Source: an uncultured virus (IMG/VR IMGVR_UViG_3300021142_000016) (lineage: Duplodnaviria; Heunggongvirae; Uroviricota; Caudoviricetes). From it: DNA of 64,000 nt. Made by a program: the position numbers and the translations under genes. Of the stretch, positions 9,965 through 61,348 are shown one piece after another (position 1 is the first letter of the stretch; every line of letters begins with the position of its first letter). Location: IMG/VR virus record IMGVR_UViG_3300021142_000016; one strand, 5' to 3'. The notes beneath the pieces were generated by a model. The model did no database searches. It was not told where the DNA came from and was given only the letters and a program-made list of their open reading frames with translations.

Positions 9965-10765
9965 TTACTTACGTGGTGCGAATGCTCCACCCCAAAGTGA
10001 CTTCTTAACTTCCTTTGGCTCTTCTTTATCAGCTACGGTTTCATCCTTAGCTTCTGCCTTGTTAAGATCTTCTTCGGTGACTTCATCTGAAGATGCAGCC
10101 TTGTTTACATCTGTAGAATCTCCCCAGCACTCGTGCATTACTGCATTTCCGCAATCTGGGCAAGTCATTCCTGACTTATAAATTCCTGCGCCATTTGTTG
10201 CAACTTGCTCTGGGAGCTTGTCGTCATTTGGTGCATCTGAAACTGAAACATCACCCTCTGGGCGAGTTGCTTGATCAACTAGATCAGTTGATGCTGGTTG
10301 AGTAGCATTTGGTAGATCCTTGGTTACAGCGATGTTACCTTTTGGATCTGGCTCTGTTGTTTGATCTGACATTGTGGTTCCTCCAATCGTATAGTCTCCA
10401 GGGTTGTTATTAACGTTTGTGTTAAAGTTACCTCTGGTGTAATTTTCTACGGTTCTTTCATCCCGCTCTTGGTCTACTGAAGAAGATGTGCCAATTGCTT
10501 TAAGAAAAGCATCTTTAACATCATCAATAAACTTAGTAACCTTCCAATCCTCTGGGAGAACATTTGTTGCTTCCAAAGCCTTTGCTCTAGCAATTATGTG
10601 CGCCTTTGCTTTTGCATAATTTGCTGAACGTCCGATTGATTGAATGGCATTGTGTAAATCTGTGACATTTTCAATTGGAAAAGAACCATCTGGTAGAGCG
10701 TGACCTGCTGCTGCCAATTGTTTGCGCTTTTCTTCTGAAAATTCTCTTTTAAATACAAGATCCAT
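9965..10765 (-). CDS. modular putative head-associated/internal virion protein
   Basis: EKRKQLAAAGHALPDGSFPI module of the kind fused to phage head proteins; acidic linkers; C-terminal SLWGGAFAP. Confidence 0.6.
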   Translation of the reverse strand: MDLVFKREFSEEKRKQLAAAGHALPDGSFPIENVTDLHNAIQSIGRSANYAKAKAHIIARAKALEATNVLPEDWKVTKFIDDVKDAFLKAIGTSSSVDQERDERTVENYTRGNFNTNVNNNPGDYTIGGTTMSDQTTEPDPKGNIAVTKDLPNATQPASTDLVDQATRPEGDVSVSDAPNDDKLPEQVATNGAGIYKSGMTCPDCGNAVMHECWGDSTDVNKAASSDEVTEEDLNKAEAKDETVADKEEPKEVKKSLWGGAFAPRK

Positions 10766-11002
10766 TTACTTTGACCCTACCTCTGTTGTAGTGATATTTC
10801 CTCCAGCGTAGCGTGGAGTGGTCATTGAAACATCACTTCCCGTGAAAGGGGATCCGACATTCATAGTACCAGCATTGTTCACGCCGAGATCTGTCTTTGC
10901 ATCTGTGCGAAGACCTGCCTCAGGACCTGCTTGCTCTGTAACTGGTGTTGCTGCAGCGGGTTGTTGTGTACCGCCTTCTTTACCTTGTTGGTTGTTATCC
11001 AT
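10766..11002 (-). CDS. small low-complexity protein, possibly virion-associated
   Basis: Same AAGGTGGTGA Shine-Dalgarno as the major capsid gene. Confidence 0.55.
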   Translation of the reverse strand: MDNNQQGKEGGTQQPAAATPVTEQAGPEAGLRTDAKTDLGVNNAGTMNVGSPFTGSDVSMTTPRYAGGNITTTEVGSK

Positions 11003-11032
11003 ATTAAATCACCACCTTATTTTCATTGTACG

Positions 11033-11359
11033 TTAAAAATCTGTTTCATCAAAATCATTCATATCAAAGCCTTCAGCTTGCAAAGCACGCTTACCATCTT
11101 CGGATATAGTCATCTGTGCGTTTAGATTTTCATCATAAGATACTTCAATCAAACCTTTTAAATATAAATCAATTAAAACCTGATCCATATCGTCTTGCAT
11201 AACTTGATATAATTCTGGCATTACTTCTTCCAAAACATCCATATCAAATCTGTAAATTGTTTCGCCATCTTCATCAATTCCATCAAAAAATGCTGCACCT
11301 TCTGAGACAAGGTACTCCATTATTTCTATATGATCTTCATCAGATGGGTCGTATTCCAA
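11033..11359 (-). CDS. acidic hypothetical protein (possible winged helix)
   Basis: LIDLYLKGLIEV...ISEDGKRAL. Confidence 0.6.
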   Translation of the reverse strand: MEYDPSDEDHIEIMEYLVSEGAAFFDGIDEDGETIYRFDMDVLEEVMPELYQVMQDDMDQVLIDLYLKGLIEVSYDENLNAQMTISEDGKRALQAEGFDMNDFDETDF

Positions 11360-11394
11360 TTTACCACTTCCTCGCTACTATTATACCTTAATTG

Positions 11395-11467
11395 CGCCCC
11401 TGGCAGGAATTGAACCTGCGACACATGGCTTAGAAGTCCATTGTTCTATCCACTGAACTACAGGGGC
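11395..11467 (-). tRNA. tRNA-Arg (UCU)
   Basis: GCCCCTG/CAGGGGC acceptor, loop CT-TCT-AA, GGTTCAATTCC T arm; A31-G39 mismatch; no encoded CCA. Confidence 0.9.
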
Positions 11468-11474
11468 AAACACA

Positions 11475-11498
11475 AAAGGTACTATTTCTAGTACCTTT
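11475..11498 (-). terminator. probable terminator after dps
   Basis: AAAGGTACTA-gaaa-TAGTACCTTT followed by TGTGTTT. Confidence 0.6.
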
Positions 11499-11524
11499 AA
11501 TGCGGATAAGCTTTGACTGCTGTA

Positions 11525-11986
11525 TTACATTATAGTAGGCTTTAGAGTTGATGTCAACTGCCATTGCCAAAATTTATGTGCTTCTTGTCTGCCAGCGATA
11601 AAATTGCAAATTCCTTGTTCATCTAATTCATTTGATACGTCGTATGTTTTTTTAAGTTGAGCCATTACTACTACATTTGTATTAATTAATTCCTGAATCA
11701 TTTGCCGAGCATTTAAATCTTCTGAATCATTAATTTCCAAACTAGGGCTAAGCTCTGTCCATGACTTTAAACCAAATGGAGTTTTTGCGCCCATTTTACG
11801 GATATTTTCTGCTATAGGATCAATAGACTCATATAAATCTTCATAAATCTTTAAGAAAAACTTGTGATATTGTGGGAATCCCGCACCTTCTACGTTCCAG
11901 TGATAGCCGTGTGCTTGCACATAATGCTTCACAACCATTGATTTTAAAACTTTTAATTCATTAATTAAATCTTCATTTGTTGCCAT
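11525..11986 (-). CDS. dps: Dps-family ferritin-like protein
   Basis: HGYHWNVEG.GF..YH..F...YE......D.IAE ferroxidase signature; likely start MATNED. Confidence 0.93.
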   Translation of the reverse strand: MATNEDLINELKVLKSMVVKHYVQAHGYHWNVEGAGFPQYHKFFLKIYEDLYESIDPIAENIRKMGAKTPFGLKSWTELSPSLEINDSEDLNARQMIQELINTNVVVMAQLKKTYDVSNELDEQGICNFIAGRQEAHKFWQWQLTSTLKPTIM

Positions 11987-12278
11987 TTTTATCACCCTTT
12001 ATATCTTCATCTATGTGACGTAGCATTTCTACTATAATCTCGTCATCTTGTTTATTTGGATCATTATGTGTGTACAAAGCTTGAACTGTCTTTTTATCCT
12101 CAAGTCTTTGGCTACCCTCACCCATCATAATTAAAAGCATTGCAATTGGAATAAGTAGACCTGTTGGAACATTTGTCCAATATTTCATGGCATTTAAACT
12201 AATTGCAGAAACATAGCCAGACAATCTTGCTGGGTATTTCTGTATATAAAAAGCTAAATTTTGCCAAAAATTCTTCAT
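11973..12278 (-). CDS. small membrane protein
   Basis: Hydrophobic segment; ATG 8 nt after TATAAT (leaderless-like). Confidence 0.55.
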   Translation of the reverse strand: MKNFWQNLAFYIQKYPARLSGYVSAISLNAMKYWTNVPTGLLIPIAMLLIMMGEGSQRLEDKKTVQALYTHNDPNKQDDEIIVEMLRHIDEDIKGDKNGNK

Positions 12279-12298
12279 ATAACTAATTATACATCAAG

Positions 12299-12368
12299 AT
12301 GAGCAGTTTTGAAAAAGACATGCTCAGGTCTTTGTCCTGCGACTCCCCGATGAAAGGGTGCAGTGACA
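12299..12368 (-). ncRNA. putative structured small RNA or 3' element: bulged hairpin plus H-type pseudoknot
   Basis: AAAGAC-CTGAGCAT-GTCTTT stem whose loop TGAGCA pairs with downstream TGCTCA; upstream CTGC..CCC/GGG..GCAG hairpin. Confidence 0.55.
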
Positions 12369-12385
12369 TTATTATATATTATTGT

Positions 12386-12847
12386 TTACTTGATGCGAAT
12401 TGTCTTAGGCTTTTGATCTTCTGGAATTTCCCGTTCAATTTTAACGGAAAGAAGTCCATTTTCAAGAGACGCAGACTTTACAACCATATATTCACCAAGC
12501 GTGAAGGTTTGTGTGAAATTGCGTCCTGCAATTCCTTTATGTAGGAATTCAGACTTTTCATCATTTTCACGATCACTCTTAATAATTAATGTATCTTTAT
12601 CTACAGTAATATCAAGATCTTCACGATCATATCCAGCAACCGCTAGTTCAACAACGTAATTGTCTTCGTCAATCTTCTTGACGTTATATGGGGGGAATGA
12701 AGATGTTGTTGTTTTATTTACATTCCAGCGATGGAACTGTGAATCAAATCCCAAGAAAAATGGATCACTGAACCATGTTTCCAAAGTTGTAAAGGGATTT
12801 GTTGATGCGATGTTATAGTTGTATGTATTGTTTCTTAGATGTGTCAT
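12386..12847 (-). CDS. small heat shock protein Hsp20 (IbpA-like)
   Basis: FPPYNV, ELAVAGY, FLHKGIA.RNF, ASLENGLL.V, C-terminal IxI (TIRIK). Confidence 0.95.
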   Translation of the reverse strand: MTHLRNNTYNYNIASTNPFTTLETWFSDPFFLGFDSQFHRWNVNKTTTSSFPPYNVKKIDEDNYVVELAVAGYDREDLDITVDKDTLIIKSDRENDEKSEFLHKGIAGRNFTQTFTLGEYMVVKSASLENGLLSVKIEREIPEDQKPKTIRIK

Positions 12848-12876
12848 TATACTTAGCTCCTTTTCAGCAAGTTAGT
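12845..12876 (-). promoter_or_regulatory. ROSE-like RNA thermometer hairpin over the hsp20 Shine-Dalgarno
   Basis: CTTGCT-GAAA-AGGAG: U(U/C)GCU pairs with AGGAG leaving a bulged G. Confidence 0.7.
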
Positions 12877-12880
12877 TAGA

Positions 12881-12907
12881 TTGGCACTCCCTGACGGCGA
12901 GTGCTAA
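12881..12907 (-). promoter_or_regulatory. CIRCE element (HrcA operator)
   Basis: TTAGCACTC-N9-GAGTGCCAA, one mismatch from consensus, between the -10 box and hsp20. Confidence 0.9.
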
Positions 12908-12911
12908 ATAT

Positions 12912-12920
12912 ATTATATCA
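12912..12920 (-). promoter_or_regulatory. extended -10 promoter for hsp20
   Basis: TGATATAAT 4 nt upstream of CIRCE. Confidence 0.7.
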
Positions 12921-13643
12921 GTTTCCTATAGCTTTGTAAAGTGAAAAATCTAGTTTTTGAAAGTCTTGAGATCTGGTCCAAAATGCTGTATTAACATATC
13001 TTGTTCCAGATGTGATCTGTGTCACACCATGTGGGTTATAGATATTCCCGCTAAAAATAGCTAACATACCTGGCTTTGGCTTAATTGTAAAGTTATTGTG
13101 AGTTGGAAAATATAATTCCCCGCCTTCAAAATCATCATTAAGGTATAGCATGCTTGTATAATGCTTTGTTGTAAACTTGCTCTTCCACAAAGATTCATCA
13201 GATTCTTTAAAATAAGTTAAATCAACATCTGGTGCAACTTTTGTACGATCAAAATCTGGGTCTATATAATCTATATGCGGTTTTTGTTGAAATGGATGAT
13301 ACCATCTTACAACTTCCCAGCATTCCAACAAGGTGTCTTGATTTCCTATATTAAAAAAATCTTTAACTTGCTCTCTTGCTTTTACATTAATTTTGTGAGT
13401 AACATCAACTAATTCTTTTTCTTTTCCTTGAAAAGCAAACCCAGTTAAATCTATTCTTCTGTTATCCCACTGAGCAGATTGTCTTAAAAAATGCTCTTCT
13501 TCTATAAAATCTTCCCTCTTGGCATTACCATGTGACCAGGAATTTGTTCTATTTGCGTATTCAATAATCCAATCACATGTTTCTTTATCTATAAAGTCTT
13601 CAACAATTCTTGCTACTGGAGAATTGTAATCTGTTACCTTCAT
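12918..13643 (-). CDS. 2OG-Fe(II) oxygenase (prolyl-4-hydroxylase-like)
   Basis: PHID (HxD), LYLNDDFEGGELYF, HGVTQITSGTRY. Confidence 0.92.
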   Translation of the reverse strand: MKVTDYNSPVARIVEDFIDKETCDWIIEYANRTNSWSHGNAKREDFIEEEHFLRQSAQWDNRRIDLTGFAFQGKEKELVDVTHKINVKAREQVKDFFNIGNQDTLLECWEVVRWYHPFQQKPHIDYIDPDFDRTKVAPDVDLTYFKESDESLWKSKFTTKHYTSMLYLNDDFEGGELYFPTHNNFTIKPKPGMLAIFSGNIYNPHGVTQITSGTRYVNTAFWTRSQDFQKLDFSLYKAIGN

Positions 13644-14762
13644 TTATTGATTGCTTCTTCCTCTTGAATCGCTATGATTTCCATAGCCTACAGATGGCTT
13701 ACCATCATTTTGTGGCGGTGTATTGTAAGTTGATTGCCATGATGGCATAACTTTTTCATTTCCCATTACTGGAGCAAAGGAACCATTCCAAACGCTAAGT
13801 CTTCCAATTCCTTCTTGTTCATCTTGTTTTGTTTGACCATTTACATCATCTTTCTTAACGGGAATACAGTTGGGAACTGTTTTACCATTTTCGTTTTCTT
13901 TTGTACCAGCGTATGCGTAGCCATCCCAACATGGTCCTTGCCCCTTATCTAAACAGTAGTTACACTTTTGTGTATCTGAAATATAATGATGATCGTTACC
14001 TAGATCATCGCAACCGCATGTCATGCATTTGCGAACATAAGTTTTTTGTAATTTAACTGGAGAAAAAACACCATCCCATGATGCTTCGCCTTTTTCAACT
14101 TTGTTAGCTCTTTCTACAATAGCACGTGACCAAGAATACCCTGCGTCCCCGCCCCATGCATACCACATAACTTTACCGTGAGATGGTTTATCCCAGTCTT
14201 TACCTTGCTTATCAACTTCATGACGAGAAAAAAATGAATACATGCGTTTTACAGTATCAAGAGATAATGATGTTCCATTTACAATTTGGTGCGCACGAGT
14301 CCAGCCAACATTAGTTCCTGCACCATTTGCTTTTCCTTCTTCTTTCCATTTGATTGCTTTTGCTGCTGCAGATTTCATTCCTGCAGTTGGCTTATAGCCA
14401 CCTTCAGCTTTATTAACAACTGGTTCCGTAACTGCAAGTGCTGCAAGTGCATCTTCAGCATCTGCACGATTGATATAGCATCCTATTGTTTGACCAGAAC
14501 CAACTTTACTAACAGAGTATCCATGCTGGCAATCTGAGGTATTAAATACAATTTCCCAACCGACTCCGCCACTAATACGGCCAGAGTTTGCTGATGAGTC
14601 ACCAGCTATTCCTACATTTTTATTAACATCTTTAACATTAGCATATAAAGCAGCAAGTTGTGCTTGTGCTTTCTTTTTAGAAGGATGAGTTCCTACAACT
14701 TTACCAGTATTTGTTGCAATAACTGCATACTGATCTCCGACTTGCTTAATGTTATATGGCAT
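13644..14762 (-). CDS. modular putative internal head protein/polyprotein
   Basis: Two GKVVG.H...A...LAAL modules, a YKPT.GM..AA..A..W...WGGDAG.SW module, a CW.GY...G.K....K.VPNC.P module and two WxGxF.P motifs. Confidence 0.6.
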   Translation of the reverse strand: MPYNIKQVGDQYAVIATNTGKVVGTHPSKKKAQAQLAALYANVKDVNKNVGIAGDSSANSGRISGGVGWEIVFNTSDCQHGYSVSKVGSGQTIGCYINRADAEDALAALAVTEPVVNKAEGGYKPTAGMKSAAAKAIKWKEEGKANGAGTNVGWTRAHQIVNGTSLSLDTVKRMYSFFSRHEVDKQGKDWDKPSHGKVMWYAWGGDAGYSWSRAIVERANKVEKGEASWDGVFSPVKLQKTYVRKCMTCGCDDLGNDHHYISDTQKCNYCLDKGQGPCWDGYAYAGTKENENGKTVPNCIPVKKDDVNGQTKQDEQEGIGRLSVWNGSFAPVMGNEKVMPSWQSTYNTPPQNDGKPSVGYGNHSDSRGRSNQ

Positions 14763-14764
14763 AT

Positions 14765-15262
14765 TTATCCTACGTTATAAATTGTTAGATTAGCACTTGG
14801 TGATGCTGGTCTTGTTGGATTTGTTCCTGCTGCTGTAGCCAATAATGACATTCCCGCTGCACCTGACCACCAATGAAATTGAATATAATCTCCTGCATTA
14901 ACAATAATTGGTGATTCAATATTTGCCAATACCTGTGAACCTTGAGCACTTGTAGTTGTAAATGTAAAAGAAGATGATGGTACCTGTACACCATTTTTAG
15001 AATACCAAGTTGTAATATTATAATTAGATGCTCCACCAGTAAAGTCAAATTGACCTAAAAAGTTAAGGTTGTATGTTCCTGGAACTTGAAAGGTAATCTT
15101 TGTAGCATCTGTACCGCTAATTGACATACCTTTTGAAAGATTTGTTGTATCCCAAGTTATAACGTTATCTGTTGTTGTACCGCCAGATGACATACTTGTT
15201 GAACGTGCAAAGTTTCCGTAATAAAGAATTTGAGCGGGAACTGTTGAAACTTTAATGCTCAT
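14765..15262 (-). CDS. C1q/TNF-like jelly-roll protein, possible head fibre/decoration
   Basis: YGNF, ITF..PGTYNL.F..QF, W..KNG..VP.S, AGDYI. Confidence 0.55.
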   Translation of the reverse strand: MSIKVSTVPAQILYYGNFARSTSMSSGGTTTDNVITWDTTNLSKGMSISGTDATKITFQVPGTYNLNFLGQFDFTGGASNYNITTWYSKNGVQVPSSSFTFTTTSAQGSQVLANIESPIIVNAGDYIQFHWWSGAAGMSLLATAAGTNPTRPASPSANLTIYNVG

Positions 15263-15263
15263 A

Positions 15264-15551
15264 TTAAACCTCTGCTGCTAATACTGCGACGTTTGGAGTT
15301 CCAGATGCTGCAATAGCATAAAGTTGATCGGAAGCAAGAAGATCTACTGTGTATGTTTGACCTGCTAAAAGAGCAAAACCATAAGATGATGTAGTAACTA
15401 AAGAAGATCCTAGATATACAGTAATTACTGGGTCTAAATTTTGAACAGAAAGTGAAACTCTGCTTTCATATACAGTTTCATTTGCTGATGGAATACTTAC
15501 TAATGTTGCTGTAGAAGCATTAAGAGCTACTACTTGGTGTGTTATTGCCAT
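15264..15551 (-). CDS. small beta-rich putative virion protein
   Basis: VQNL....VYLG...VT...YGF.L..G........LYAIA pattern. Confidence 0.55.
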   Translation of the reverse strand: MAITHQVVALNASTATLVSIPSANETVYESRVSLSVQNLDPVITVYLGSSLVTTSSYGFALLAGQTYTVDLLASDQLYAIAASGTPNVAVLAAEV

Positions 15552-16050
15552 TTGTTACCTCCGTGTTTTTTGTATCTTTACCAATTATATCATTTATCTT
15601 GCGAGATTTCATTTTCTTTGGATTAGGTATTACCTCTGCTGCGGGTAAAGTTCCCGCCTTTCTAAACCTAAGAGATTCCCAGAGAGCATGAGGTAGGGTA
15701 TGCACCCCGTAGTGTGTTCTGTGATGATTTGTACACAAAGTTTCAAGATTGCCTGGACTTTCCAGCCATTGTTGAAATTCATCATCATCTTTAAAATTTA
15801 AACCAAAATAAGCTTCAATTTTTTCTTGATCTGCATTTGGTAGTTGTGAAAATTCTACATGCGTATGATGTAATTCTATTTGACCGCCACATAAATCATC
15901 ATTGATGTTGCACTTCCAAAGTCCAGCTTCCTTGATCTTCTTTTTAGCAGCCACAAAATATTTATAATTTGGGTCATGCTCTCGTGGATCATGCTCGGGT
16001 ATATGTGCTAAAATATGAAATTCCATATTTACATCATGTGCATCTGTCAT
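15520..16050 (-). CDS. HNH-like His/Cys-rich protein
   Basis: C...C....ELHH...NLETLC..HH....GVH. Confidence 0.55.
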   Translation of the reverse strand: MTDAHDVNMEFHILAHIPEHDPREHDPNYKYFVAAKKKIKEAGLWKCNINDDLCGGQIELHHTHVEFSQLPNADQEKIEAYFGLNFKDDDEFQQWLESPGNLETLCTNHHRTHYGVHTLPHALWESLRFRKAGTLPAAEVIPNPKKMKSRKINDIIGKDTKNTEVTNGNNTPSSSS

Positions 16051-16073
16051 AATAGTTAATTATACATTATTTG

Positions 16074-16144
16074 AGCGAATAGCGGGAATCAAACCCGCGC
16101 ATTAACCTTGGCAAGGTTACGCACTATCACTATGCAATATTCGC
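16074..16144 (-). tRNA. tRNA-Gly (GCC)
   Basis: GCGAATA/TATTCGC acceptor, TAACC-TTGCCAA-GGTTA, U73. Confidence 0.88.
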
Positions 16145-16147
16145 AGG

Positions 16148-16272
16148 GGCTATATACGGATTCCAGCACATTGAATGGCTGCCCTAAGAAGTCTCCCACT
16201 CACAGAACTCTGGTCACGGGTTACTTGGTTATTCGTAACTATATCCATACCTAAGGTGTGCCGTATATAGCC
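16148..16272 (-). ncRNA. putative structured ncRNA between tRNA-Leu and tRNA-Gly
   Basis: Perfect 12-bp terminal stem GGCTATATACGG/CCGTATATAGCC with nested helices; not a cloverleaf. Confidence 0.6.
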
Positions 16273-16275
16273 TTG

Positions 16276-16349
16276 TGCTTCATGTAAGACTTGAACTTAC
16301 AACATCATGATCCTAAGTCATGTGCCTCTACCAATTGGGCCAATGAAGC
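16276..16349 (-). tRNA. tRNA-Leu (UAG), short variable loop
   Basis: GCTTCAT/ATGAAGC acceptor, CATGA-CTTAGGA-TCATG, A73. Confidence 0.88.
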
Positions 16350-16354
16350 TTCTG

Positions 16355-16426: not shown

Positions 16427-16430
16427 ATAG

Positions 16431-16504: not shown

Positions 16505-16511
16505 TTTGGGT

Positions 16512-16865: not shown

Positions 16866-16870
16866 ATGTT

Positions 16871-17173: not shown

Positions 17174-19021
17174 CTATAGAATTCTCATGCTGTCAACACG
17201 TAATTCATCTTCATCGTCATCAAGTCCCATAAATTCCCGCAAACTTTTTGGCATTTCTTTTTTGTCAGGCATTCTAATTGTATTATTTTTATTTAATCTA
17301 GCATCTGATTGTTTTCTTAGCTCTTCTAATTCTGATGCAAATACGCCAGAATAAGTATAGATCTCTACTTCTTTATCAGCGTCTGGGGGAGTTAACGATA
17401 TAGCATTATATACTGAACCACAAACTGCGTCAGACAAGTCCTTAGAACCTTTTCTGGGGTGGTCTACACGATCTTTTACTATACGCAATTGAAGCAATTC
17501 ATCAATAAGCAATTGAATTTTTGGACCATGTAATCTTTCTTCAGTTAAAGTAAGAGACATATCTTCGTAATGTTTTTTTGCTACTGAAAGAATTTCTGTT
17601 TTAATCCCATGAACGCCAAGCTGTTGCATCATGTCATGAGAATTCCATCTGTCAAATGTTACTAACTTAAGGTTAAATCCTTTTTCTCTAACACTTGTAA
17701 TATAATCTTTAACTTCTGTAAAATCAACAGATTTTGAAGCTGTAGGTGTCCAATATCTTACTGCATCTACAACAACTCTAGGGGCTGCTTCTTTATACTG
17801 TTCACCAATTTTCATTGTCACCCAGCCCTCAACGTGAGCTAAAGCTACTGCACAATGGTCATGCTTTTGAGCAAGGTCAACGTGCATAAAATATGTTTTT
17901 TCTGGATCTGGTTTAAAATCATCGTCAAACCTGCCATATGAATCTACATTTAATTTAGGATTACTAAATGCTTTTTCAATTACCAATCTGCTTTTAAAGA
18001 ACGCATCAGTAGCATCTGGTGGCATGCAGGCAAAACGAGAAAGAGCATCTGTTGGATCTGTATAAAAGTCAATAGTAAAATCTTCAATTTTACGTGTTGG
18101 ATTAATTTCCCAAGTAGGTCTTTTTAAAGCATACATTCGTGGGACTTTGTATGAAATAATATGGTCTTCTTCCCATTCAATTTCAAATTCATTGCCCTCA
18201 GTATTATCTGGAAGATCTGGGTCTACTTTAAACCTATGATGCCTAAGAACCACTTCTTTTTCGGCTACCGCTTCATTATATTTTTGCTGGATATAGTCGT
18301 TTTTAAAACGTGGGAATGAAAGCAAAATAACTTTACCAAAATCTGGGAAACGTGAGTTTACAGATGCACGATACATCTTATAAATTGATGATGCAGTTTT
18401 TGCTTGTTCATGCCCAGTAGTTGACTCAAGTTCAAAACCTGAAATCTCATCAAGAATAATTACAAGAACGTTATATCCTTCCCAAGCTTCTCTTTCTGAG
18501 TGACCTGAGTGAACAGTAACTGATTTATCAAACTCAACCATGTTGGCCTTAGCAACATATTTCCCTTGAAACCATGGGGATTTTTCAATACGCTGATTAA
18601 ATCCTTTAAAGAATACTCGGTTAGCCTGAACGGCGTTAATAGCAATGTTAATAATATCAATAGCATCGCCTGGTGGCTTACCAAAATAAACTGCTGGGTC
18701 TGCTAGACAAAGCAGCAAATAAACCATATAGGCACAAGCAATTGTAGATGTATAGTCTTTTCCAGAACCCTTACCCAACTGCAAAATAACTTCGTTACAT
18801 GTTTGCTTAAATATTTTGGTGCCTTCATCTTCACCATAAATACGTATTAATGTATCTTTTTTATAAATTTGAGTCATCGCACGAATCATGGTGTATTGAT
18901 AATCAGAAAGTGGTGGTAAGCCTAAATAAGCTTTATCTGTAACAAATTGCTCAAGTGATACTGGAGTTTCTGAAAATTCATCTCCAGTCAAAGCATCTAA
19001 AAATACGTTAAAATCATTCAT
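17174..19021 (-). CDS. terL: terminase large subunit
   Basis: Walker A GKGSGKD, Walker B IILDE, LLSFP coupling motif, nuclease HVDLA, TFDRW, DHP..GSKDLSDA. Confidence 0.93.
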   Translation of the reverse strand: MNDFNVFLDALTGDEFSETPVSLEQFVTDKAYLGLPPLSDYQYTMIRAMTQIYKKDTLIRIYGEDEGTKIFKQTCNEVILQLGKGSGKDYTSTIACAYMVYLLLCLADPAVYFGKPPGDAIDIINIAINAVQANRVFFKGFNQRIEKSPWFQGKYVAKANMVEFDKSVTVHSGHSEREAWEGYNVLVIILDEISGFELESTTGHEQAKTASSIYKMYRASVNSRFPDFGKVILLSFPRFKNDYIQQKYNEAVAEKEVVLRHHRFKVDPDLPDNTEGNEFEIEWEEDHIISYKVPRMYALKRPTWEINPTRKIEDFTIDFYTDPTDALSRFACMPPDATDAFFKSRLVIEKAFSNPKLNVDSYGRFDDDFKPDPEKTYFMHVDLAQKHDHCAVALAHVEGWVTMKIGEQYKEAAPRVVVDAVRYWTPTASKSVDFTEVKDYITSVREKGFNLKLVTFDRWNSHDMMQQLGVHGIKTEILSVAKKHYEDMSLTLTEERLHGPKIQLLIDELLQLRIVKDRVDHPRKGSKDLSDAVCGSVYNAISLTPPDADKEVEIYTYSGVFASELEELRKQSDARLNKNNTIRMPDKKEMPKSLREFMGLDDDEDELRVDSMRIL

Positions 19022-44501: not shown

Positions 44502-47500
44502 TTAGTAAGATAGTCCCTTGTCAATCTGATTTAATACCAGCGTAGTTTTAAGGCCTTGGTTAAACACATGGGAAACAGAGTGAACTGTATACTTTTGCTG
44601 ATTTAATGCAGACAATGTATAATTAACCGTTATTACATCTCCAACTTGGATCATTGGGTTACCAAAAATAATTAACTGTGTGTCTTTTGAAAACCCGTCA
44701 AAACCTTTTTCAATAACTGTCATTAATCTGTTTGCAGACTGTTCTGATTGAATCCATTGAGAATCTACCTGTGCTACCTCTGTGGCATTTACTGGATCAA
44801 CAATTTTTTCAATAACTTTGGGATCTGATGGAGCAATAATTTCATGAGTCCACAAATTTAAGTTTACTGTAAACTGATTTAAGTTATCTGATTGCTTACT
44901 TAAATATACCATGTGGTTTGAGTTATTTACAATAGCCATTTTTGCTCTAAACCCAGTATTGATTGGGGTTGAGTACGCCAAAGAATACTCGTCAACAGTT
45001 TGTTGTTGATAGTATTGTTGATCCGTAGGAGTAGTTCCTGGAAAATAATACCACAAATATGAAATTGGAAGAATATCAACAGAAACCGCAGCTGGATTTG
45101 TATATTGAACATCATAAGTATTAATACCAACAATTTGAGGTGTTGTTTGCATCATATAGCTTTTATATTTTGAAAACAAATTATTTCCTTGAATAAGACC
45201 ATTTAAAAATTCTCTATCTTGAAAATAATAACTTACGCTTCTTTCCTTAAAAGGTTTTTGACAAGCATAAATTTCTTGAAGGTGAGCTGGAGTAACAGTA
45301 GAGCTTACTGTATTTGGATAAGTAATTCCTGATATTGTTACTGGTTTTGTTGAAGTATAAAAACCAAAATTTGTGCCAGTAAAATCAAGAGCTGACCCAC
45401 CAGTTGTCAACATATTTTTTTGTCTTAATCCAGTTACTGTATTCTTTGGCTTTGCCGTCCAACCAGAAACGCCGTATCCTGTTGAATCAACAGTTCTTGC
45501 ATCAGGTATTTGCCAGCCAGTAATTTCAATATTGTTTAAAAATATTTCAATAATTTCTCCGACTTGCTCTCCCGCTGAAAATGTTTGATCTGTTCCATCT
45601 GAATAATAATGTGCAACTTTAAGATTAAATGTTTGATCAGAAGATGCAACATATGTATAATTTGAGTTTGCCCCTGAACCTGTTACTTTTGTTAAAACCT
45701 GCTCAAAGTTAGCAATAATATAATTTGCATGCCCAGTTACATCTGCCCAAGTTATGACAGTGGCTGTAGAGCCCGAAACTGAATAGACAGCAATAACATA
45801 CCTGTATGAAGCAGTTCCAGAAGTTGCTGTATTAAATTTAATAAGCTCTACAAAATAAGCACCCGAACCATTTGATCCTGTTTGGTTGAAGAATATTCCA
45901 CTTGCAGATGTTTGTTGATTTGTTAAATCAAACTTAGCAGAATATGTATGATAACCTTGATCCGTGCTTGATGGATATACTAAAGTTTTAGTATTTGCTG
46001 CAGCTTGTACTGCTATTTTATTAACTCCTGGGAGACTTGGATAATTTGTTTTTGTATTGTACCAAGAAGTGTTGGTCCCAGATCCTAGGGAATAAGACGA
46101 GTTAAATGTACCCTCAAGCAAATTTTTTGCAGAAATTGATTGTCCGCTTGAAAAAACAGTATGTGCAGAAGGTACCGTTCCAAATAAACCTCTTTGCACA
46201 TTTGTAATTGATTGTGAATTATTGTCTACACCCGACGGTGAGACCAAAACGTTATAGTCTGATTTAGTTGTTGCTGAACCTGTTGAATCAACATTGGATG
46301 AAATTACAAGTCCTGTAGCATATTTTTTAATATATTGATTGATATAAGAAGAAAGTTCAAGATCATTTTTAACAGATATAGTCATTGGGCTTGAACCGTC
46401 AAGATTGCTAATTGTATATTGTTTGTATGCAAAAGAAACTATTTCATTTTCAATAACAGCATACCCATTATTATTTAAAGAAAAGCTGTGAAATACATCA
46501 AGTAAATCATTTTTATTAATTGTATATTTATTATCGTTTGCACTCATTGAAGAATACAAATAGTTAAATCCAACTGAATCCAGGCTTGATTGTTGCCATA
46601 CAACGTCATTTGATGTTGTATAAACAAATGATGGATCATTTTTAATTGTTGGATCTGTAGCATTTTGTAAGGCTAGGGATTGTTTAATTTTAGGAGGTTG
46701 ATATCTTAAAGAAAGTTTTCCTGGCTTTGCTTTATTGGTTATTGAATAGCCTTCCGTGACAATGCTTGAATCAGATATCGTGAGAGAAGAATTGGCAGAT
46801 GACAGTATTCCTGACAAACTCTTAAACCTCATAATTCCATATTCGTCAATAAATGCACCAATTTGATAGGCCAAGAATATTTGGGATAAAGCATCTATAA
46901 GCGTAGTGTCTTTACTATTTACATAATAGTAGGCTAGGTCCAAAGGCATTGTTTTATCGTTAGATACTGCGTATAATGAATCGTAATCATAATCTGTAAA
47001 TCCCGCCAAATCTAAAATGTTTGAAATTACATCCGATACTGGCTTTAAGTTAGCAACATAATCTGGAGATGGTAAAGTTTGAAGATATCTTGTAATATCA
47101 TAAGCGGTAATTTTAACATCTTTAATATCTGTTTCATCCCAGGCATCTGAGTAAAAAACACCAGCTGGTATGTAGGTTCCAGTGTTGCCATTTGGTTGAG
47201 TAAATGATCCTGTACTGCTATTAAAATATGATTTTAAAGTCCAGCCAAGATAAAACTTAATATTTTTTCTAAGCATGTTTGCCAGTATGTTTGTAGATAA
47301 ATTACTTTGACTTGAAAATACTGGAACAAAACCATTGTTTAATGCCACTGGGATTGCTGAAAGCGTAATCTCAGCATCATCAGCATTAATAGAAGAAATT
47401 GGAACAAAATTGTTTTTAGAATCAAGAGATTTATTAATTGTTACATCTTTTGTAAAGTTTGTTAAATCAATTTCTAATCTTGGAGACATTTCAATTAATT

Positions 47501-55510: not shown

Positions 55511-55606
55511 TTTTTATTTCACCGCCTTATTTATTTTTAAATTAAACAAGAGGCATTGTTACTTCCTCATGTAAAAGCATACCATTGATGTTAAATAAAA
55601 CAAACT

Positions 55607-56122
55607 TTAAGCAAATCTGCCTGTATTTGGGTCAACATTTCGTGTGTATGAATAGTGGATTGTAATGTCTCCACTCATATATCCGCCTTCATCCGTAAAT
55701 GGCTGTATTGGATCGGTTGTGTCAATCTTAAAATAGAAGAAATCATAGGGGCTATTTTGAGCTAGTTGGACATTTACCCCCTGTGCTGCCAAGTCGTACC
55801 TTCTAAATAGATCAACCATAAAGTTAATAATAGTTTGAATTTGAGCAGAGTCTCTGGATATAACTTCAAATATCATAGACTCTTGAGACATCCACCACTG
55901 AACTCCGTAATTCTTTTGAATTACATTGTATGTCAAATATGGCTTGCCAGGTAGCAAGTTATTAAATTCTGGGATTTGTTGTGCAGGTACAATTGGTATT
56001 AAAGGCTCATCAAATCCATCTGGATAGTAATCTTGCTCATTTAAAATACCCGCGTTTTTAAATTCTTCCCACAAAACATTTCTTACATCGTAAGCTGCTA
56101 CATATGTGTAATCTGTTGTCAT
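55607..56122 (-). CDS. tail terminator-like protein
   Basis: Position; PYLTY motif. Confidence 0.6.
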   Translation of the reverse strand: MTTDYTYVAAYDVRNVLWEEFKNAGILNEQDYYPDGFDEPLIPIVPAQQIPEFNNLLPGKPYLTYNVIQKNYGVQWWMSQESMIFEVISRDSAQIQTIINFMVDLFRRYDLAAQGVNVQLAQNSPYDFFYFKIDTTDPIQPFTDEGGYMSGDITIHYSYTRNVDPNTGRFA

Positions 56123-56847
56123 CTAATCATCTCCTTGCCTTGACTTGCTTGCTCTGCTGCTCTTGCAACTGCTGCTCTTACTTGCTCCGCATTGGAACCT
56201 GTTACATTTAAAGCTACTGCTGCATCATTAACTATTCTCTCATAGAATCCAGAAGAATCCATAATTACTCCTGCGTTTGCAACATACCAATCAACCATGA
56301 ATCTTGTAAATGAATTTTTAACCTTTGAGCCACCTGGATTTAAGATATTAACTGGTGTTCCTTTAGCAATAAAGGCAATTCCATTATTACCCATAAACGA
56401 CAAAACTCTTTTTGCGGTAAATCTTACTGCAGTTCCGCCTTCCATAATTTCAGCTTTATCTCTAAAAATATTTTGCGCTGTTACAGTTTTTCCTGTAGGG
56501 CCAGGTACTTGAAGTTCTGGATTAATTGGCACTGGCAAAGATGATGGTAAAAATTCTGAACCAATTTCTAATGTTCCACCTAGCATTGAAAGCATGTTTA
56601 TTACAAACAATCTTCCTTCTGGGTAACCAATTTTTCCCCACTCATAAACGTGATGCATAGCTTTTGGATTTGATCTTGCATAAGAGTCTGCTGCTAACAC
56701 AAATCTTTCGCCCGTAATAGTAAATACTGCTTTAGAAATTTGTTCTAAAACGTAGGGCTTTGTTAACTCTTCTATTCCTAAAAGCTTGTTATCAATTTCT
56801 TTAATTAAACTATCAAGATTAGCTTGATTAACTTCCAGTTGGATCAT
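56119..56847 (-). CDS. head-tail region virion protein
   Basis: HHVYEWG motif; likely start MIQLEV at 56847. Confidence 0.6.
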   Translation of the reverse strand: MIQLEVNQANLDSLIKEIDNKLLGIEELTKPYVLEQISKAVFTITGERFVLAADSYARSNPKAMHHVYEWGKIGYPEGRLFVINMLSMLGGTLEIGSEFLPSSLPVPINPELQVPGPTGKTVTAQNIFRDKAEIMEGGTAVRFTAKRVLSFMGNNGIAFIAKGTPVNILNPGGSKVKNSFTRFMVDWYVANAGVIMDSSGFYERIVNDAAVALNVTGSNAEQVRAAVARAAEQASQGKEMIR

Positions 56848-57280
56848 TGTCTTGTACCGACACTCTTTGTAGAACTGCTTCATAATAAGCAATTTTCCCA
56901 AATGGATCAAGGACTGCGTGTGATGATGTTACTTCAAATATTGTGTTTGGCGTGTCATATCTATCAATTTCAATAAAGATTTGCTCGTTAGATGTTGAGC
57001 GTATATTTTCTATTCTAGCTCTCTTTGAAAGTAGTTCATTGCACTTAATTCTGAGCTGTAGCTTTTCGCTATACTCTCCCTCAGAACCGCCAGCAAATTT
57101 TTTGTTATCTGTTCTGGTTGAAGAACCGCCTACCTTAATTGGCTCTACTTTGCAACGAATTGTTTTTGCATAAGACCATTCACGGATAACTGCACCCGTA
57201 TTTTTATTTTGTGAATATTGCTGCTCATAAATATCTGCAGTCATATTCATAATTGATGACATAAAGGTATTTGATAGCAT
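56828..57280 (-). CDS. head closure (stopper) protein
   Basis: Position and beta-rich pattern. Confidence 0.65.
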   Translation of the reverse strand: MLSNTFMSSIMNMTADIYEQQYSQNKNTGAVIREWSYAKTIRCKVEPIKVGGSSTRTDNKKFAGGSEGEYSEKLQLRIKCNELLSKRARIENIRSTSNEQIFIEIDRYDTPNTIFEVTSSHAVLDPFGKIAYYEAVLQRVSVQDNDPTGS

Positions 57281-58230
57281 TAGATAATTACAATATTAAC
57301 GTGGCGGTATTGATCAAGAATATTATCAACATTCAAGTTACCCGTTCCGTTAAATGCTCCCTTATGCATTTCAAACGAAATTTCACTAAGGTCAACCTTT
57401 GAAAGGTATTTAACTCTCCAGTTGTAATCGTTTGAAAGGATATCATTTACTAAAAGAATTGTTGCAATTTTAATGTCTTCTGGAACATACTGATATCCCA
57501 TAAGACCCACAAAACGATACCTGGAGCGGTCTCTGAAACGTCCGTAGTAAAGGATTGTTGGATCGTAACCGCCTTCGTAACTGATATCCCATTCTGGTCT
57601 ATATAGTCTTACACCAAAATTTGTTGGTGTAATTGTAAGATCATATTCAAAAATATTATAAACTGGGTTTTGTGTATAATCAATCATTAATTGATCGTTT
57701 TCATAAAACTGATCAATTTTTAAAATCTTTTCTGTCAATTCAATTGAATCGGAACCAATTCCAATTACTTCTTGAAAACCCGTATAAGATCTAAATTTTT
57801 GACCAGTGTAGCCGTCAACAATTGTTCTTGCTAGTTTTTCTGCATTCTCAATTTCTTTTATGTCATGATAATTTAATTCAGATGGAGTTGAACCCCATTG
57901 AAGAAAATCAATAATTTCATCTGGCGTTGCGTATACAGTTTCAACACTGTAAAAAGATGTTTCTGTTGCTTGTACTCCATTAAGTCTGTAACTCCAAACA
58001 ACTTGCAAAACTCTTGCAATGTTTGTGATAGCTGGAGTAAGCAAGAATGAATATATACCAGCGGGTGTCTCATCATAAGCAGTTAAATTGCTGAAACCAG
58101 CTATAGGGGACGAGTTGTTGTCTGCATCAAATATTTGTAGCGTAGGAACGGTATCTGCCTGTGTTAAAACTCCGTCGCTAAATACCTGTAGTTGAATTTT
58201 TTCCTGAGTGTTTGTTGTTATTGTTTGCAA
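57280..58230 (-). CDS. head-tail adaptor/connector
   Basis: YATPDEI, AR.IVDGYTGQKF, GY..VPEDIK.A; TTG start. Confidence 0.75.
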   Translation of the reverse strand: MQTITTNTQEKIQLQVFSDGVLTQADTVPTLQIFDADNNSSPIAGFSNLTAYDETPAGIYSFLLTPAITNIARVLQVVWSYRLNGVQATETSFYSVETVYATPDEIIDFLQWGSTPSELNYHDIKEIENAEKLARTIVDGYTGQKFRSYTGFQEVIGIGSDSIELTEKILKIDQFYENDQLMIDYTQNPVYNIFEYDLTITPTNFGVRLYRPEWDISYEGGYDPTILYYGRFRDRSRYRFVGLMGYQYVPEDIKIATILLVNDILSNDYNWRVKYLSKVDLSEISFEMHKGAFNGTGNLNVDNILDQYRHVNIVII

Positions 58231-58250
58231 TCAAAACGCCCCCTTATTTT

Positions 58251-58646
58251 TTAGTTGTAGTACTCCTGAGCCTCTCTAGGAGTTGCAATTCTGAAACCTT
58301 CTTGGGTATCAAAAAGTCTTTGTGCATCTGACTCTGGCATTGCAACAAAAGGGTGCTCTTGGCTGAAGGTGTAGCCCATAGCCTGATAAGAGTAATTACC
58401 TCTTACCATTCTTACAAGAATAGTGTTTTCGTTCTTAGACAATTTTTCCCTCTTCTTTTTTTCAACTTCTGGGACTTCAATATCTTGCTTTTCACTATTG
58501 TCAAATTTAGCATACATTTGATAAGTAACGCCCTCTTCTTCAAGAAGCGCAACTAGCTCATTCTTTGTCTTTGCAGCTGAAGATTCTACTCCAAATTGAT
58601 CTGCAATCTTTCTTAGTTCTGTGATTTTTAGGTCTGTAAATGACAT
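58251..58646 (-). CDS. Rho-N/HeH-like domain protein
   Basis: LKITELRKIA..FGV......KNELV. Confidence 0.65.
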   Translation of the reverse strand: MSFTDLKITELRKIADQFGVESSAAKTKNELVALLEEEGVTYQMYAKFDNSEKQDIEVPEVEKKKREKLSKNENTILVRMVRGNYSYQAMGYTFSQEHPFVAMPESDAQRLFDTQEGFRIATPREAQEYYN

Positions 58647-58683
58647 TTTATATCCTCTCGTTACGTCAATTATATCAGAAAAT

Positions 58684-58715
58684 AGTTAAGGGAGATATTG
58701 CTATCTCCCTTAACT
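58684..58715 (-). terminator. intrinsic terminator after the major capsid gene
   Basis: 14-bp AGTTAAGGGAGATA/TATCTCCCTTAACT hairpin followed by ATTTT. Confidence 0.85.
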
Positions 58716-58732
58716 TTGCAACTAATTAGAAA

Positions 58733-59875
58733 TTAGTATGTGTAAGTTCCTGAGCCACCGAAGGTACCAGCACCGTTTGTAACGGAACCAAAAGCACCTG
58801 TAGCAACTGAACCTGCAACCTTAACGTTCTTCACAATAACGTGAGCGTCATAGTTTTCCATTTGTGCGCCAACACGGATGAAGAGTGTATATTCAATTGT
58901 ATCCTTCTTTGGTTGGAACAAACGATAAACAGTTACATCGCGCTTGATACCAATGATGAAGTTCTGAGGGAAAGTCAAGTGGATGTCACCGTGCAAACCA
59001 GTTGCACCGTTGTAATCTCCTGCCTTTGTCTCGTCCATCAATGGAACGTTGATTACTGGGATACCGAAAGCGAAAGGAGTTGTAGTTCCTGGACCGCCAT
59101 CGTTAGCAGTAACATCACCACGGATAACGCCAGAAGCGATATCAAATGGGTTGACCGAACCAGCGTTAGCTGTTAGGTTGTATAGGTAATCTTGAACTAG
59201 GTTTGATCCTGAGAAGAAACGAAGTTGATTACGGCGTTGCTTGTACTTACGAGGAAGTGTCTTGATAGCAAGGTTGAATACAGCCTTGTCAAGTCCTACA
59301 CCTTGTGCGTCAACAACGTGAGCGTTAGCAAGTGCCAATGCACGGAATCCTGCGAATGCAGAAAGCAAACCAGAGCCAGTACCGAGACCATTGATTAGTA
59401 CATCCTCAATGTCGTTACCAGCTTGTGTTGCCATAAGACGTGCGATGTGGTCTTCTAGATCTGGACCCTCAATATTGTCTTCAAGAGACTCTGAAGAAAG
59501 TTCCCAGTCTAGGCGAAGCTTGCGAGTTGTCAAAGAAATCTTTGAGAATGTAGCAGCAGCGTTAGAGAAGTTTCCAACGTTTGCGCCTGAAGTATCATAT
59601 CCTGTGTAATCACGAGGATTTTCTTCTGAAGCGACTGTCATAATTCTCTGACCGACTGATACACGGTCAATTTCTGTTGTGTTTGAGCGCATACGAATAG
59701 TTCTTGCAGCCTTAGCAAGAATTGTAGCGTCCCACATGTAATCTAGGAAGCGATTAGCCTGATCTGGATAGAGGAGACCGTCACCGCTGAGGGTTGATGT
59801 ATCTGTTGATGCATTAACGCCAGCTGAACCAAGATTTGTTGTATCAATTACTTTTTGTAGAAGTTCATTACTCAT
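58733..59875 (-). CDS. major capsid protein (HK97 fold)
   Basis: GLL.PDQANRF, LS.ESLEDNIEG, INGL; strong Shine-Dalgarno and terminator; follows the protease. Confidence 0.92.
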   Translation of the reverse strand: MSNELLQKVIDTTNLGSAGVNASTDTSTLSGDGLLYPDQANRFLDYMWDATILAKAARTIRMRSNTTEIDRVSVGQRIMTVASEENPRDYTGYDTSGANVGNFSNAAATFSKISLTTRKLRLDWELSSESLEDNIEGPDLEDHIARLMATQAGNDIEDVLINGLGTGSGLLSAFAGFRALALANAHVVDAQGVGLDKAVFNLAIKTLPRKYKQRRNQLRFFSGSNLVQDYLYNLTANAGSVNPFDIASGVIRGDVTANDGGPGTTTPFAFGIPVINVPLMDETKAGDYNGATGLHGDIHLTFPQNFIIGIKRDVTVYRLFQPKKDTIEYTLFIRVGAQMENYDAHVIVKNVKVAGSVATGAFGSVTNGAGTFGGSGTYTY

Positions 59876-59902
59876 TGTTTTATTTCACCACCTTATTTTA
59901 TC

Positions 59903-61348
59903 TTATTTAGTTAAGCTATTAACACCGAGGAAGTGTCCTTGCCATATACTTGTTTTTTGTATCTTACTTACACCAGCTGATCCGTCAAGATCGCTGGACT
60001 TCTTAACTGCCGTTGCAGATTCAAAATTCTTGAGTTGATGATCAACATACTCAATCTTTCCGAACATATCTGTAACTGACTTACTCAAGGTTTCGTACTT
60101 TTCTACTAGATCAGCATTTGCTTTTTGAATATCCTCATAATTCTTAGACAAACGCGCCATCTCTGCTCTTGTTTCATTGACAATGTTGTACATGTCTTGA
60201 ACTGTTGCAGCTTGTGTAGCATAGTTCTTTTCAATAGACTCACCAAAGAAGGTCTTAAGGTCTGTGACCATCTTTTCAAAATCAAGGGTATCCTCTACTT
60301 CTGAAATAGATACGGCTTTCTCAATTGTTTCACCAGCATCAACTGCTGCTACTTCTTCAATTACCGCAACTTCTTCGGCTGGAGTTTCAACAGTTGTAGC
60401 TTCTGCTACCTCTGCAGTTGTATCTTCTGCCATTTTGTTACCTCCTTCGTTGAGCGAAATATCATCACTCTTTTTAAGCCCGTCATTAAACGTGACTTTC
60501 TTTTTTTCATTTTGATCAGGATAAAGATTAATTGAAGCATTGCTATCAATTACATTACCTGCCAAACCTGGAGCTGCTGTCTCCGTTGCTTCGTGTGCTG
60601 ATGTTGGTGCATCATCTTTCTTAAAATAAGAATCAATTACTTTTTCAATTGCTTCAAATTTTTCTGAATCTGTTTGTTCAACCCAACCAATGTTTGACAT
60701 TGGCTCTTCGCATACAACACAATTTTTTGTTGTAGATGTTGTTGTTGAAGCAACTTCATCTTGCTTACACCAAAAAACATTTTCTAAAATAACTTCTGCA
60801 ACCATTCCTTTTAGCATTGTGCTTCCATCAAGATTTTTTTCAATAGAGAAAAAGTTTGCAAGTTGATTTGCTGGTGAATCTACAAGACTTAATTCATGCA
60901 ATTCATAGTCATGAATAACACGACGATCTTGACCTGATCCATCATCAGCTTTTTCCATTTTTGCATCATTGATGTTTCCGCCAATTGAGAAACCACCGTA
61001 GGTTCCATCTAAGCACTTCTCCCATGCATCTTGTGCACCCTTTGAGATATATGCTGTTACATAAATTCCATTATATTTCTTTTTTGTTTCTGGATCAAAA
61101 AAAGAATCTTCTTTAAAATTAACCATCTTGCCAACAGCTGTTGGACCATGCATCTCGCGGATATTACCGCGAAAATTATCAAATGCTTTTTTGCTTGCTG
61201 CAGCTGTAACGATATCGCCGTGGCGATCAACATTGTCTAGGGACGCAAAACCAGAGACTGTTCTCTTCTCCTTATTAACCTTTGTAATAGGGAAGTGAAG
61301 AGCCATTGAGGATTCACTGTTTTGCCAATACGTTTTTTTAATGTCCAT
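59903..61348 (-). CDS. HK97-type prohead protease fused to an acidic/coiled-coil scaffold
   Basis: VSGFAS...VDRHGD, IREMH, GFSIGG, ELSLVDSPAN; C-terminal coiled coil. Confidence 0.92.
   Translation of the reverse strand: MDIKKTYWQNSESSMALHFPITKVNKEKRTVSGFASLDNVDRHGDIVTAAASKKAFDNFRGNIREMHGPTAVGKMVNFKEDSFFDPETKKKYNGIYVTAYISKGAQDAWEKCLDGTYGGFSIGGNINDAKMEKADDGSGQDRRVIHDYELHELSLVDSPANQLANFFSIEKNLDGSTMLKGMVAEVILENVFWCKQDEVASTTTSTTKNCVVCEEPMSNIGWVEQTDSEKFEAIEKVIDSYFKKDDAPTSAHEATETAAPGLAGNVIDSNASINLYPDQNEKKKVTFNDGLKKSDDISLNEGGNKMAEDTTAEVAEATTVETPAEEVAVIEEVAAVDAGETIEKAVSISEVEDTLDFEKMVTDLKTFFGESIEKNYATQAATVQDMYNIVNETRAEMARLSKNYEDIQKANADLVEKYETLSKSVTDMFGKIEYVDHQLKNFESATAVKKSSDLDGSAGVSKIQKTSIWQGHFLGVNSLTK

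Follow-up and report, generated by a model that had tools for sequence, protein, structure and literature searches.

Why would the scaffold of a tailed-phage head end in a short peptide that recurs in two unrelated accessory proteins encoded far from the head genes? The question is raised by a stretch of 64,000 nucleotides from an uncultured virus of the Caudoviricetes (IMG/VR record IMGVR_UViG_3300021142_000016), referred to at its full length as the window. Here, a W-x-G-x-F peptide, called the tag below, is found in a predicted prohead protease-scaffold fusion of 481 amino acids (P0001; 59903-61348), in a protein of 266 amino acids (P0002; 9965-10765) and, twice, in a modular protein of 372 amino acids (P0003; 13644-14762). 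All substantial open reading frames (ORFs) of the window, including these three and every other gene located below, are on the minus strand. Sequence comparison supports the view that the peptide is a real, conserved and portable motif common to the scaffold C-terminus and the unrelated accessory proteins. By analogy with known systems, we consider it probable that the tag acts as a portable procapsid-loading signal copying the scaffold tail, which would bind the coat protein and direct packaging.

A preliminary description of the window had placed four copies of the peptide, and all four were confirmed by translation and a codon check. P0001 has the C-terminus ...IQKTSIWQGHFLGVNSLTK, in which the tag KTSIWQGHFLG (59924-59956) stands 5 residues before the end, and P0002 finishes in ...VKKSLWGGAFAPRK, with the tag KKSLWGGAFAP (9974-10006) 2 residues before the end. 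P0003 holds EKGEASWDGVFSPV, with tag 1, ASWDGVFSP (14058-14084), and LSVWNGSFAPV, with tag 2, SVWNGSFAP (13770-13796). The consensus is approximately K-K-S-Φ-W-x-G-x-F, followed by L-G/S on the scaffold and by [AS]-P on the accessory proteins. The tag is C-terminal in the scaffold and P0002; as a correction to that description, the two copies in P0003 are internal, 139 and 43 residues before the stop.

When the window was scanned in six frames for [ST]x{0,1}WxGxF, four matches were obtained, all at these sites. The looser pattern W.G.F gave six: the same four, another within a WhiB-like ORF (7806-7820) and the last in a non-coding frame of 34 codons (46168-46182). Within the predicted proteome (86 proteins, 20,269 amino acids), five matches were observed against 0.77 expected (Poisson P = 1.2e-3), a number reached by 4 of 2000 within-protein shuffles, so the motif is more frequent than background. 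Four of these five are preceded by S or T, and those four lie within P0001, P0002 and P0003. The major capsid protein (MCP) of the window contains no such motif. The GVWGGVF of the WhiB-like protein (7806-7820) was considered as a fifth tag and rejected, as it lies inside the Whib domain (PF02467, residues 20-77, the Trp being residue 74); we take GVWGG to be the WhiB family's own turn, unrelated to the tag.

The tag is kept in homologues of all three proteins. These were the best 120 of 488, 3373 and 7870 matches in a word-indexed search (119-120 were compared for each protein), a procedure that may favour sequences sharing the motif. Among the protease-scaffold homologues, W.G.F lies within 15 residues of the C-terminus in 118 of 119, with tails of the form ...K[KQ]S[IV]WQG[HA]FL[GS]... 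and SIWQNRFLG as the single exception. The P0002 homologues carry it within 12 residues of the C-terminus in 115 of 119 cases, 4-8 residues from the end, and mostly terminate in ...KKS[LIV]WGGAF[AS]P.K; the four exceptions are one WGNAF variant, two proteins that stop before the tag region and are probably fragments (P0161 and P0172), and one protein with a different C-terminal region (P0180). W.G.F is present in 109 of 120 P0003 homologues, where many tags are without K-S. Beyond the tag, P0002 and P0003 have nothing in common, and the best BLASTP alignment between them (E = 0.062) covers the tag only. A DNA pattern for W-G-G-A-F-[AS]-P matched 113 stretches in IMG/VR, namely 45 P0002 homologues and 68 others; by eye, the latter were mostly short, out-of-frame or unrelated ORFs, with one distant P0002-like ORF in L113, and no useful catalogue of new cargo families emerged from the 113.

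The assignment of P0001 is based on Pfam PF14550 (E = 4.6e-7, 30.3 bits; cut-off 24) and PF04586 (E = 3.8e-4, 21.1 bits; cut-off 21), on PHROG 9427, 'head maturation protease' (E = 6e-118), and on an AlphaFold2 (AF2) model. The protein comprises a predicted XkdF/S78 protease domain (residues 23-166), a small Cys-bearing beta domain (188-241), an acidic disordered linker (244-355), a helix (357-440) and a disordered tail (441-481). With a predicted S78/XkdF domain followed by a coiled-coil scaffold region, and with a gene placed between those of the portal and the MCP, P0001 has the make-up of a prohead protease-scaffold fusion. In the model, the tag lies in the disordered tail after the long helix, with a predicted local distance difference test (pLDDT) value below 50. 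The HK97-type MCP, P0004 (58733-59875), was identified by PHROG 1623 (E = 5.7e-78) and PHROG 10, 'major head protein'; its Pfam Phage_capsid match (E = 3.9e-5, 23.6 bits) fell just below the cut-off of 24.2. The head module is defined by P0001, the MCP and the portal gene (62591-63889; PHROG 12, E = 1.6e-56). The beta domain of P0001 (60626-60787) is beta-rich, has the invariant residues Cys194, Cys210 and Cys213, and may bind metal; Cys clusters occur in P0002 and P0003 as well.

P0002 consists of an N-domain (residues 6-76), a conserved middle part, a CPDC Cys motif, an acidic linker and the tag. P0003 has the order M1, M2, M3, tag 1, M4, tag 2 and tail, in which M1 (residues 1-42) and M2 (69-112) are DUF2188-like, M3 is helical (121-223; 14094-14402, the phrog_2859 region; PHROG 2859, E = 2.4e-31), M4 is Cys-rich and the tail is a conserved GYGN...SNQ. 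Tag 1 follows M3 directly (pLDDT about 37-46), and relatives with M3 as the last module end just past it. Tag 2 is predicted to be disordered, and its spacing to the stop is 42-43 residues (51 in one subfamily) in most P0003 family members. In the AF2 model, both tags lie in low-confidence linkers directly after confident modules. By these models, the tag context is a disordered tail or linker after a folded module, as expected for a short linear motif. No significant Pfam match was obtained for P0002 or P0003, and the P0003 model had no Foldseek match in the PDB at E ≤ 1e-3; Protein Atlas look-ups returned unnamed viral clusters and a DUF6582 lead with a score of 0.78. The C-terminus of P0003 (13644-13700) bears a second conserved motif, ...[SA][VA]GYGN.S...G[RK]SN[QS] up to the stop, which is found in most family proteins and is predicted to be disordered.

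Related genomes show how the modules and the tag travel. In contig G004 (L095, 10292-11702), the modules of P0003 are distributed over three genes: in two of them the stop comes 6-8 residues past the tag, and in the third (M2 plus tail) the tag lies 43 residues ahead of the stop. The same contig encodes a further Cys-rich tagged protein of 108 amino acids. In G003 (80958-81848), the modules are re-ordered as M4-M3-M2 and one tag is lost. M3 alone, used as a phmmer query against 1.84 billion representatives, had 3790 matches at E ≤ 1e-3; W.G.F is present in 20 of the best 150, in 11 cases within 13 residues of the C-terminus, and some distant M3 proteins end in the scaffold-like IQKSIWGGTFLK.

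A tagged M3 protein led to a sister clade in which the pairing of scaffold and cargo is repeated, and the link between the two is strengthened by this repetition. The cargo proteins of this clade end in ...KKS[IV]W.G.F[LI]K at 49 of 80 loci (37 of 55 distinct proteins). The protease-scaffold was found in seven of the ten sister-clade records searched, with 50-54% identity to P0001, the other three records being 50-66% complete. In all seven genomes the scaffold ends in ...KKSKWNGSFLGSV..., its tail reading ...TIKKSKWNGSFLGSV... (KKSKWNGSFLG). The nearest cultured relatives of the virus are Streptomyces phages of the Stanwilliamsviridae. One of them, Streptomyces phage Sham, shares the gene order of the window and has a protease 40% identical to P0001, with the C-terminus ...STWGGRFLGLSDLQN; no other Sham ORF is tag-like. 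Because Sham has the motif on the scaffold only, the sequences suggest an ancestral copy on the scaffold and derived copies on the cargo.

The modules of both accessory proteins also occur within head proteins of other viruses. The N-domain of P0002 matches the C-terminal ends of two such proteins, the capsid maturation protease gp30 from Gordonia phage ChisanaKitsune and the portal from Caudovirales GX15bay. A tblastn search with M3 matched 89 phage records. The module is embedded in a portal-MuF protein labelled 'head morphogenesis' in HRTV-28, in the HGTV-1 prohead protease and in a 'capsid maturation protease' encoded by Actinomycetia phage DSL-LC01. In Vibrio phage 1.112.O, M3 is encoded just upstream of a likely portal gene and an annotated MuF-like head-morphogenesis gene. 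In Vibrio phage 1.171.O, it is fused to a putative XkdF-like domain (read by eye from the translation), directly upstream of a likely scaffold and the annotated MCP. Among the best 150 phmmer matches, 14 of the 52 M3 proteins of at least 400 amino acids contain MuF, portal or S78 domains at E ≤ 1e-6. A Foldseek search against predicted viral structures (BFVD) gave 60 matches at E ≤ 1e-3, and the best 50 of these include six named 'Prohead protease', four XkdF and four with portal-type names. The W.G.F tag is present in none of the 14 head-fused M3 proteins and in 20 of the 136 others, which fits a 'fused or tagged' arrangement, although the split is not significant (about 0.14 expected by chance, by our own arithmetic). 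In other viruses, enzyme domains of several kinds (ADP-ribosyltransferase, ferritin-like, NUDIX, HAD and histidine-phosphatase) also occur in one protein with M3, frequently accompanied by MuF or S78 protease; metagenomic fusions to such enzyme domains include P0384, P0406, P0456, P0486 and P0412. From their sequences, the joined enzymes look like a varied repertoire of head-carried enzymes.

We propose that the peptide works as a short linear motif for docking, carried on a flexible tether. The scaffold copy would hold the protease-scaffold, and hence the protease, at the inside of the assembling procapsid. The MCP P0004 is the presumed receptor, by analogy with the scaffolds of 80alpha, P22 and others, and its inner face or N-arm would be the most likely site. 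As P0002 and P0003 carry copies of the tag, we suggest that they are co-assembled into the procapsid as internal cargo. Tagged stand-alone cargo may then replace the covalent portal, MuF or protease fusion used for the same modules elsewhere; in the window, neither P0002 nor P0003 is fused to any of these. A complex prediction for the MCP with residues 222-266 of P0002, run without controls, scored 0.00 and speaks neither for nor against binding. Of the portable loading tag put forward in the preliminary description, the shared and conserved peptide, the apparently older scaffold copy and the head association of the modules elsewhere stand, and the likeness to encapsulins is reduced to a functional analogy.

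Release from the wall may be part of the same mechanism. In HK97, the S78-type protease cuts at K103/S104 (PMC10275583). In the window, conserved Φ-x-K-[AS] sites near the tag, including K-K|S, may be candidate prohead-protease sites, at which the protease would free scaffold and cargo from the wall-bound tag. The pattern Φ-[NKQE]-K-[AS] occurs five times in P0001 (0.42 expected; residues 131, 291, 342, 407 and 448), three times in P0002 (0.16 expected; residues 220, 234 and 253) and 22 times in the whole proteome (20,269 amino acids), an enrichment weakened by the fact that the motif was defined after the sequences had been seen. Conservation is complete at K450/S451 of P0001 and at least 90% at K255/S256 of P0002. 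A bolder form of the proposal seems to us possible but rather doubtful: that some 10 scaffold-tail residues are enough to bring any protein into a phage capsid of the HK97 fold, that a large group of uncultured, probably freshwater actinophages pack shuffled small modules as bead-on-a-string polyproteins cut at Lys-Ser/Ala, and that the tag, in replacing fusions, links scaffold tails and encapsulin peptides as one evolutionary theme.

Several observations weigh against the loading-signal reading. The P0002 and P0003 genes are ~45-50 kb from the head genes, amid auxiliary genes, and both P0003 tags are internal rather than terminal. Within the clade of the window, the tags differ consistently after the Phe, cargo having F-[AS]-P and the scaffold F-L-[GS]. 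With a scoring matrix built only from 155 distinct cargo tags, no other non-cargo site in the proteome scores as high as the scaffold tail, which reaches 11.5 bits, compared with a 95th percentile of 9.0 for the shuffle null and a maximum of 12.4 in 300 shuffles. No co-variation between scaffold tail and cargo tag was seen across the genomes, and in the sister-clade genomes G012 and G013 the tails of the M3 proteins have diverged (KKSIFGTEGPQ... and TLWTGKLDP...) with the scaffold tail unchanged. The clade is known from metagenomes only, with no cultured member, and its best matches in the phage collection are the 40% identical Streptomyces phages. The word-indexed gathering of homologues, the framing of the cleavage motif and the non-significant 'fused or tagged' split, described above, are to be counted here as well.

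One alternative, which we consider unlikely, is that the motif is a recognition or cleavage element of the prohead protease (an exosite or substrate mark) and not a wall-docking peptide; it would mark the scaffold, P0002 and P0003 as substrates, and capsid entry would be optional. The conserved K-K-S right before the tag in P0002 and most scaffold homologues is what such a mark might look like, as are the enrichment of Φ-x-K-[AS] in P0001 and P0002 and the K/S cut of HK97 (PMC10275583). The P0003 tags also lie at module boundaries, like polyprotein junctions, and M3 is fused to protease domains elsewhere. However, most copies are 2-8 residues from the C-terminus, where a cut would free a tiny peptide only, and the conserved core W-x-G-x-F lies downstream of any K|S bond, many P0003 tags having no K-S at all. 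The MCP is also without such a motif and, as a weak further point, the AF2 model leaves the tail disordered and undocked from the protease domain.

A second alternative, to which we give a small chance, is that the motif binds another common partner, such as a host factor, a chaperone or a degradation system, and reflects shared regulation and not location. C-terminal peptides often serve as degrons and chaperone handles, which counts for this explanation, as do the position of P0002 and P0003 far from the head module, amid auxiliary genes (Hsp20, GroES-like, HslV-like and 2-oxoglutarate (2OG) oxygenase), and the cargo tags that are unlike the scaffold tail at +1/+2. The sister-clade cargo tags, with F-L/I, are closer to the scaffold tail, however, and in many other viruses modules of both cargo families are joined to proteins of head assembly. 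Moreover, Sham keeps the scaffold motif and has no Hsp20, GroES or HslV annotated, so the partner of the scaffold copy must be a core component. That the likeness of scaffold tail and tag is a coincidence, with two separately conserved W-x-G-x-F motifs of different function, is very improbable: the 11.5 bits of the scaffold tail are near the top of the shuffle null and the unrelated W-G-G motif of the WhiB-like protein reaches 9.9 bits, but the similarity reaches back to K-x-S-Φ ahead of the Trp, both kinds are on disordered C-terminal tails, some distant M3 proteins have the scaffold-like ending, and a second clade pairs the scaffold KKSKWNGSFLG with the nearly identical cargo KKSIWxGxFLK.

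Returning to the loading signal, known systems offer several points of comparison. In Staphylococcus phage 80alpha, the last 16-21 scaffold residues bind the N-arm of the coat protein and CpmB of SaPI1 sits at the same place (PMC5644958). The window resembles 80alpha and CpmB in having a conserved peptide at the extreme C-terminus of the scaffold (in the 118 of 119 homologues, the sister clade and Sham) and a second, otherwise unrelated kind of protein that carries it (the P0002 and P0003 families and the sister-clade M3 proteins). It differs in that the 80alpha peptide is an amphipathic helix with an RIIK hook, whereas K-K-S-Φ-W-x-G-x-F is modelled by AF2 without a helix, at pLDDT below 50. 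Unlike CpmB, the alternative size-determining scaffold of a satellite, the carriers here are the phage's own, cargo-like modules, and unlike that of 80alpha, the scaffold is fused to a protease.

In T4, a capsid targeting sequence (CTS) on IPI-III and Alt is N-terminal, targets the scaffold core and is probably removed by the prohead protease. By analogy, the tag would likewise be a short portable peptide for loading unrelated proteins into the prohead; unlike the CTS, it is found at the C-terminus or internally and is a copy of the tail of the scaffold itself. The T4 protease gp21 is of a family other than S78/XkdF, to which the protease of the window belongs by prediction. The HK97 protease gp4 has a C-terminal region that directs it into the procapsid, in a phage with a delta domain instead of a separate scaffold; to our knowledge, no accessory proteins copy this region. 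The proposed role of the P0001 tail is analogous, in that the C-terminus of an S78-type prohead protease would serve as a procapsid address.

Encapsulin targeting peptides are short C-terminal peptides that, on a flexible linker, bring diverse cargo to the interior of an HK97-fold shell. The tag, also a short peptide on a disordered linker with diverse carriers, is functionally analogous; its sequence is presumably unrelated to the encapsulin consensus. Unlike encapsulins, the present system concerns a tailed-phage capsid (portal, large terminase, tape measure and tail genes are present), and the tag is shared with a scaffold-protease. A further comparison is with head-internal proteins fused to MuF, portal or protease, for example the reported MuF polymorphic toxins (PMC5576092). 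The passengers are modules of the same kinds, namely M3 and, in some relatives, domains of the ADP-ribosyltransferase, ferritin-like and NUDIX types; those passengers are covalently joined to a head protein, whereas the ones described here are stand-alone with a peptide tag. In its working, the tag system is closest to the scaffold-tail mimicry of 80alpha/CpmB and to the T4 CTS, and it is encapsulin-like in logic; it lacks a defining feature of each. Searches of the literature outside subscription papers retrieved neither a description of the motif nor virion proteomics for the clade or the Stanwilliamsviridae.

If the loading-signal reading is correct, the tag would provide a sequence-readable rule for proteins that a large group of uncultured phages carries in its heads and presumably injects; by other means, it is very difficult to predict which proteins are internal or ejected. 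The system would further be a case of a scaffold docking peptide copied onto cargo inside the phage's own genome, such copying having been seen so far in a satellite's rival scaffold (CpmB) and, in different form, in the T4 CTS. The occurrence of the same small modules in two states, joined to portal, MuF or protease in one and free but tagged in the other, would be explained as well. A peptide of ~10 residues for loading HK97-type capsids would be useful in phage and nanocontainer engineering.

PHROG and Pfam scans identified a siphovirus-type gene set in the window. In the order of transcription, it comprises the portal, an endolysin-like gene, P0001, the MCP P0004, head-tail and tail genes (including a tape measure of 1619 amino acids), a replication block, the large terminase and auxiliary genes. 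The replication block encodes a DnaB-like helicase, a primase, a single-stranded DNA-binding protein and a DNA polymerase, which has the PHROG label 'DNA polymerase' only and whose Sham counterpart is annotated as DnaE-like. Clade contigs are metagenomic and about 90-110 kb long, and a megablast search of the phage collection with the head genes gave no match. The guanine-plus-cytosine (GC) content of the window is 33-38%. The WhiB gene suggests an actinobacterial host and, since the relatives are Streptomyces phages and the GC content is low, we infer a low-GC freshwater actinobacterium.

The auxiliary region (3405-13643) contains a tryptophan-halogenase-like gene (3405-5039), an HslV-like peptidase (6194-6748), the WhiB-like gene (7716-8039; PF02467), a GroES-like gene (8237-8548), Hsp20 (12386-12847) and a 2OG-Fe(II) oxygenase (12918-13643) that abuts P0003 directly; a thioredoxin-like gene is found there as well. 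The large terminase gene (17174-19021), followed by the auxiliary genes in the order of transcription, is ~44 kb away from the portal and head genes, as in Sham. Finally, the interval between the portal and protease-scaffold genes (61390-62588) holds a 113-amino-acid ORF and the endolysin-like gene (286 amino acids; PHROG 21357, E = 3.7e-38), which, placed in the head module, could encode a virion-associated lysin.

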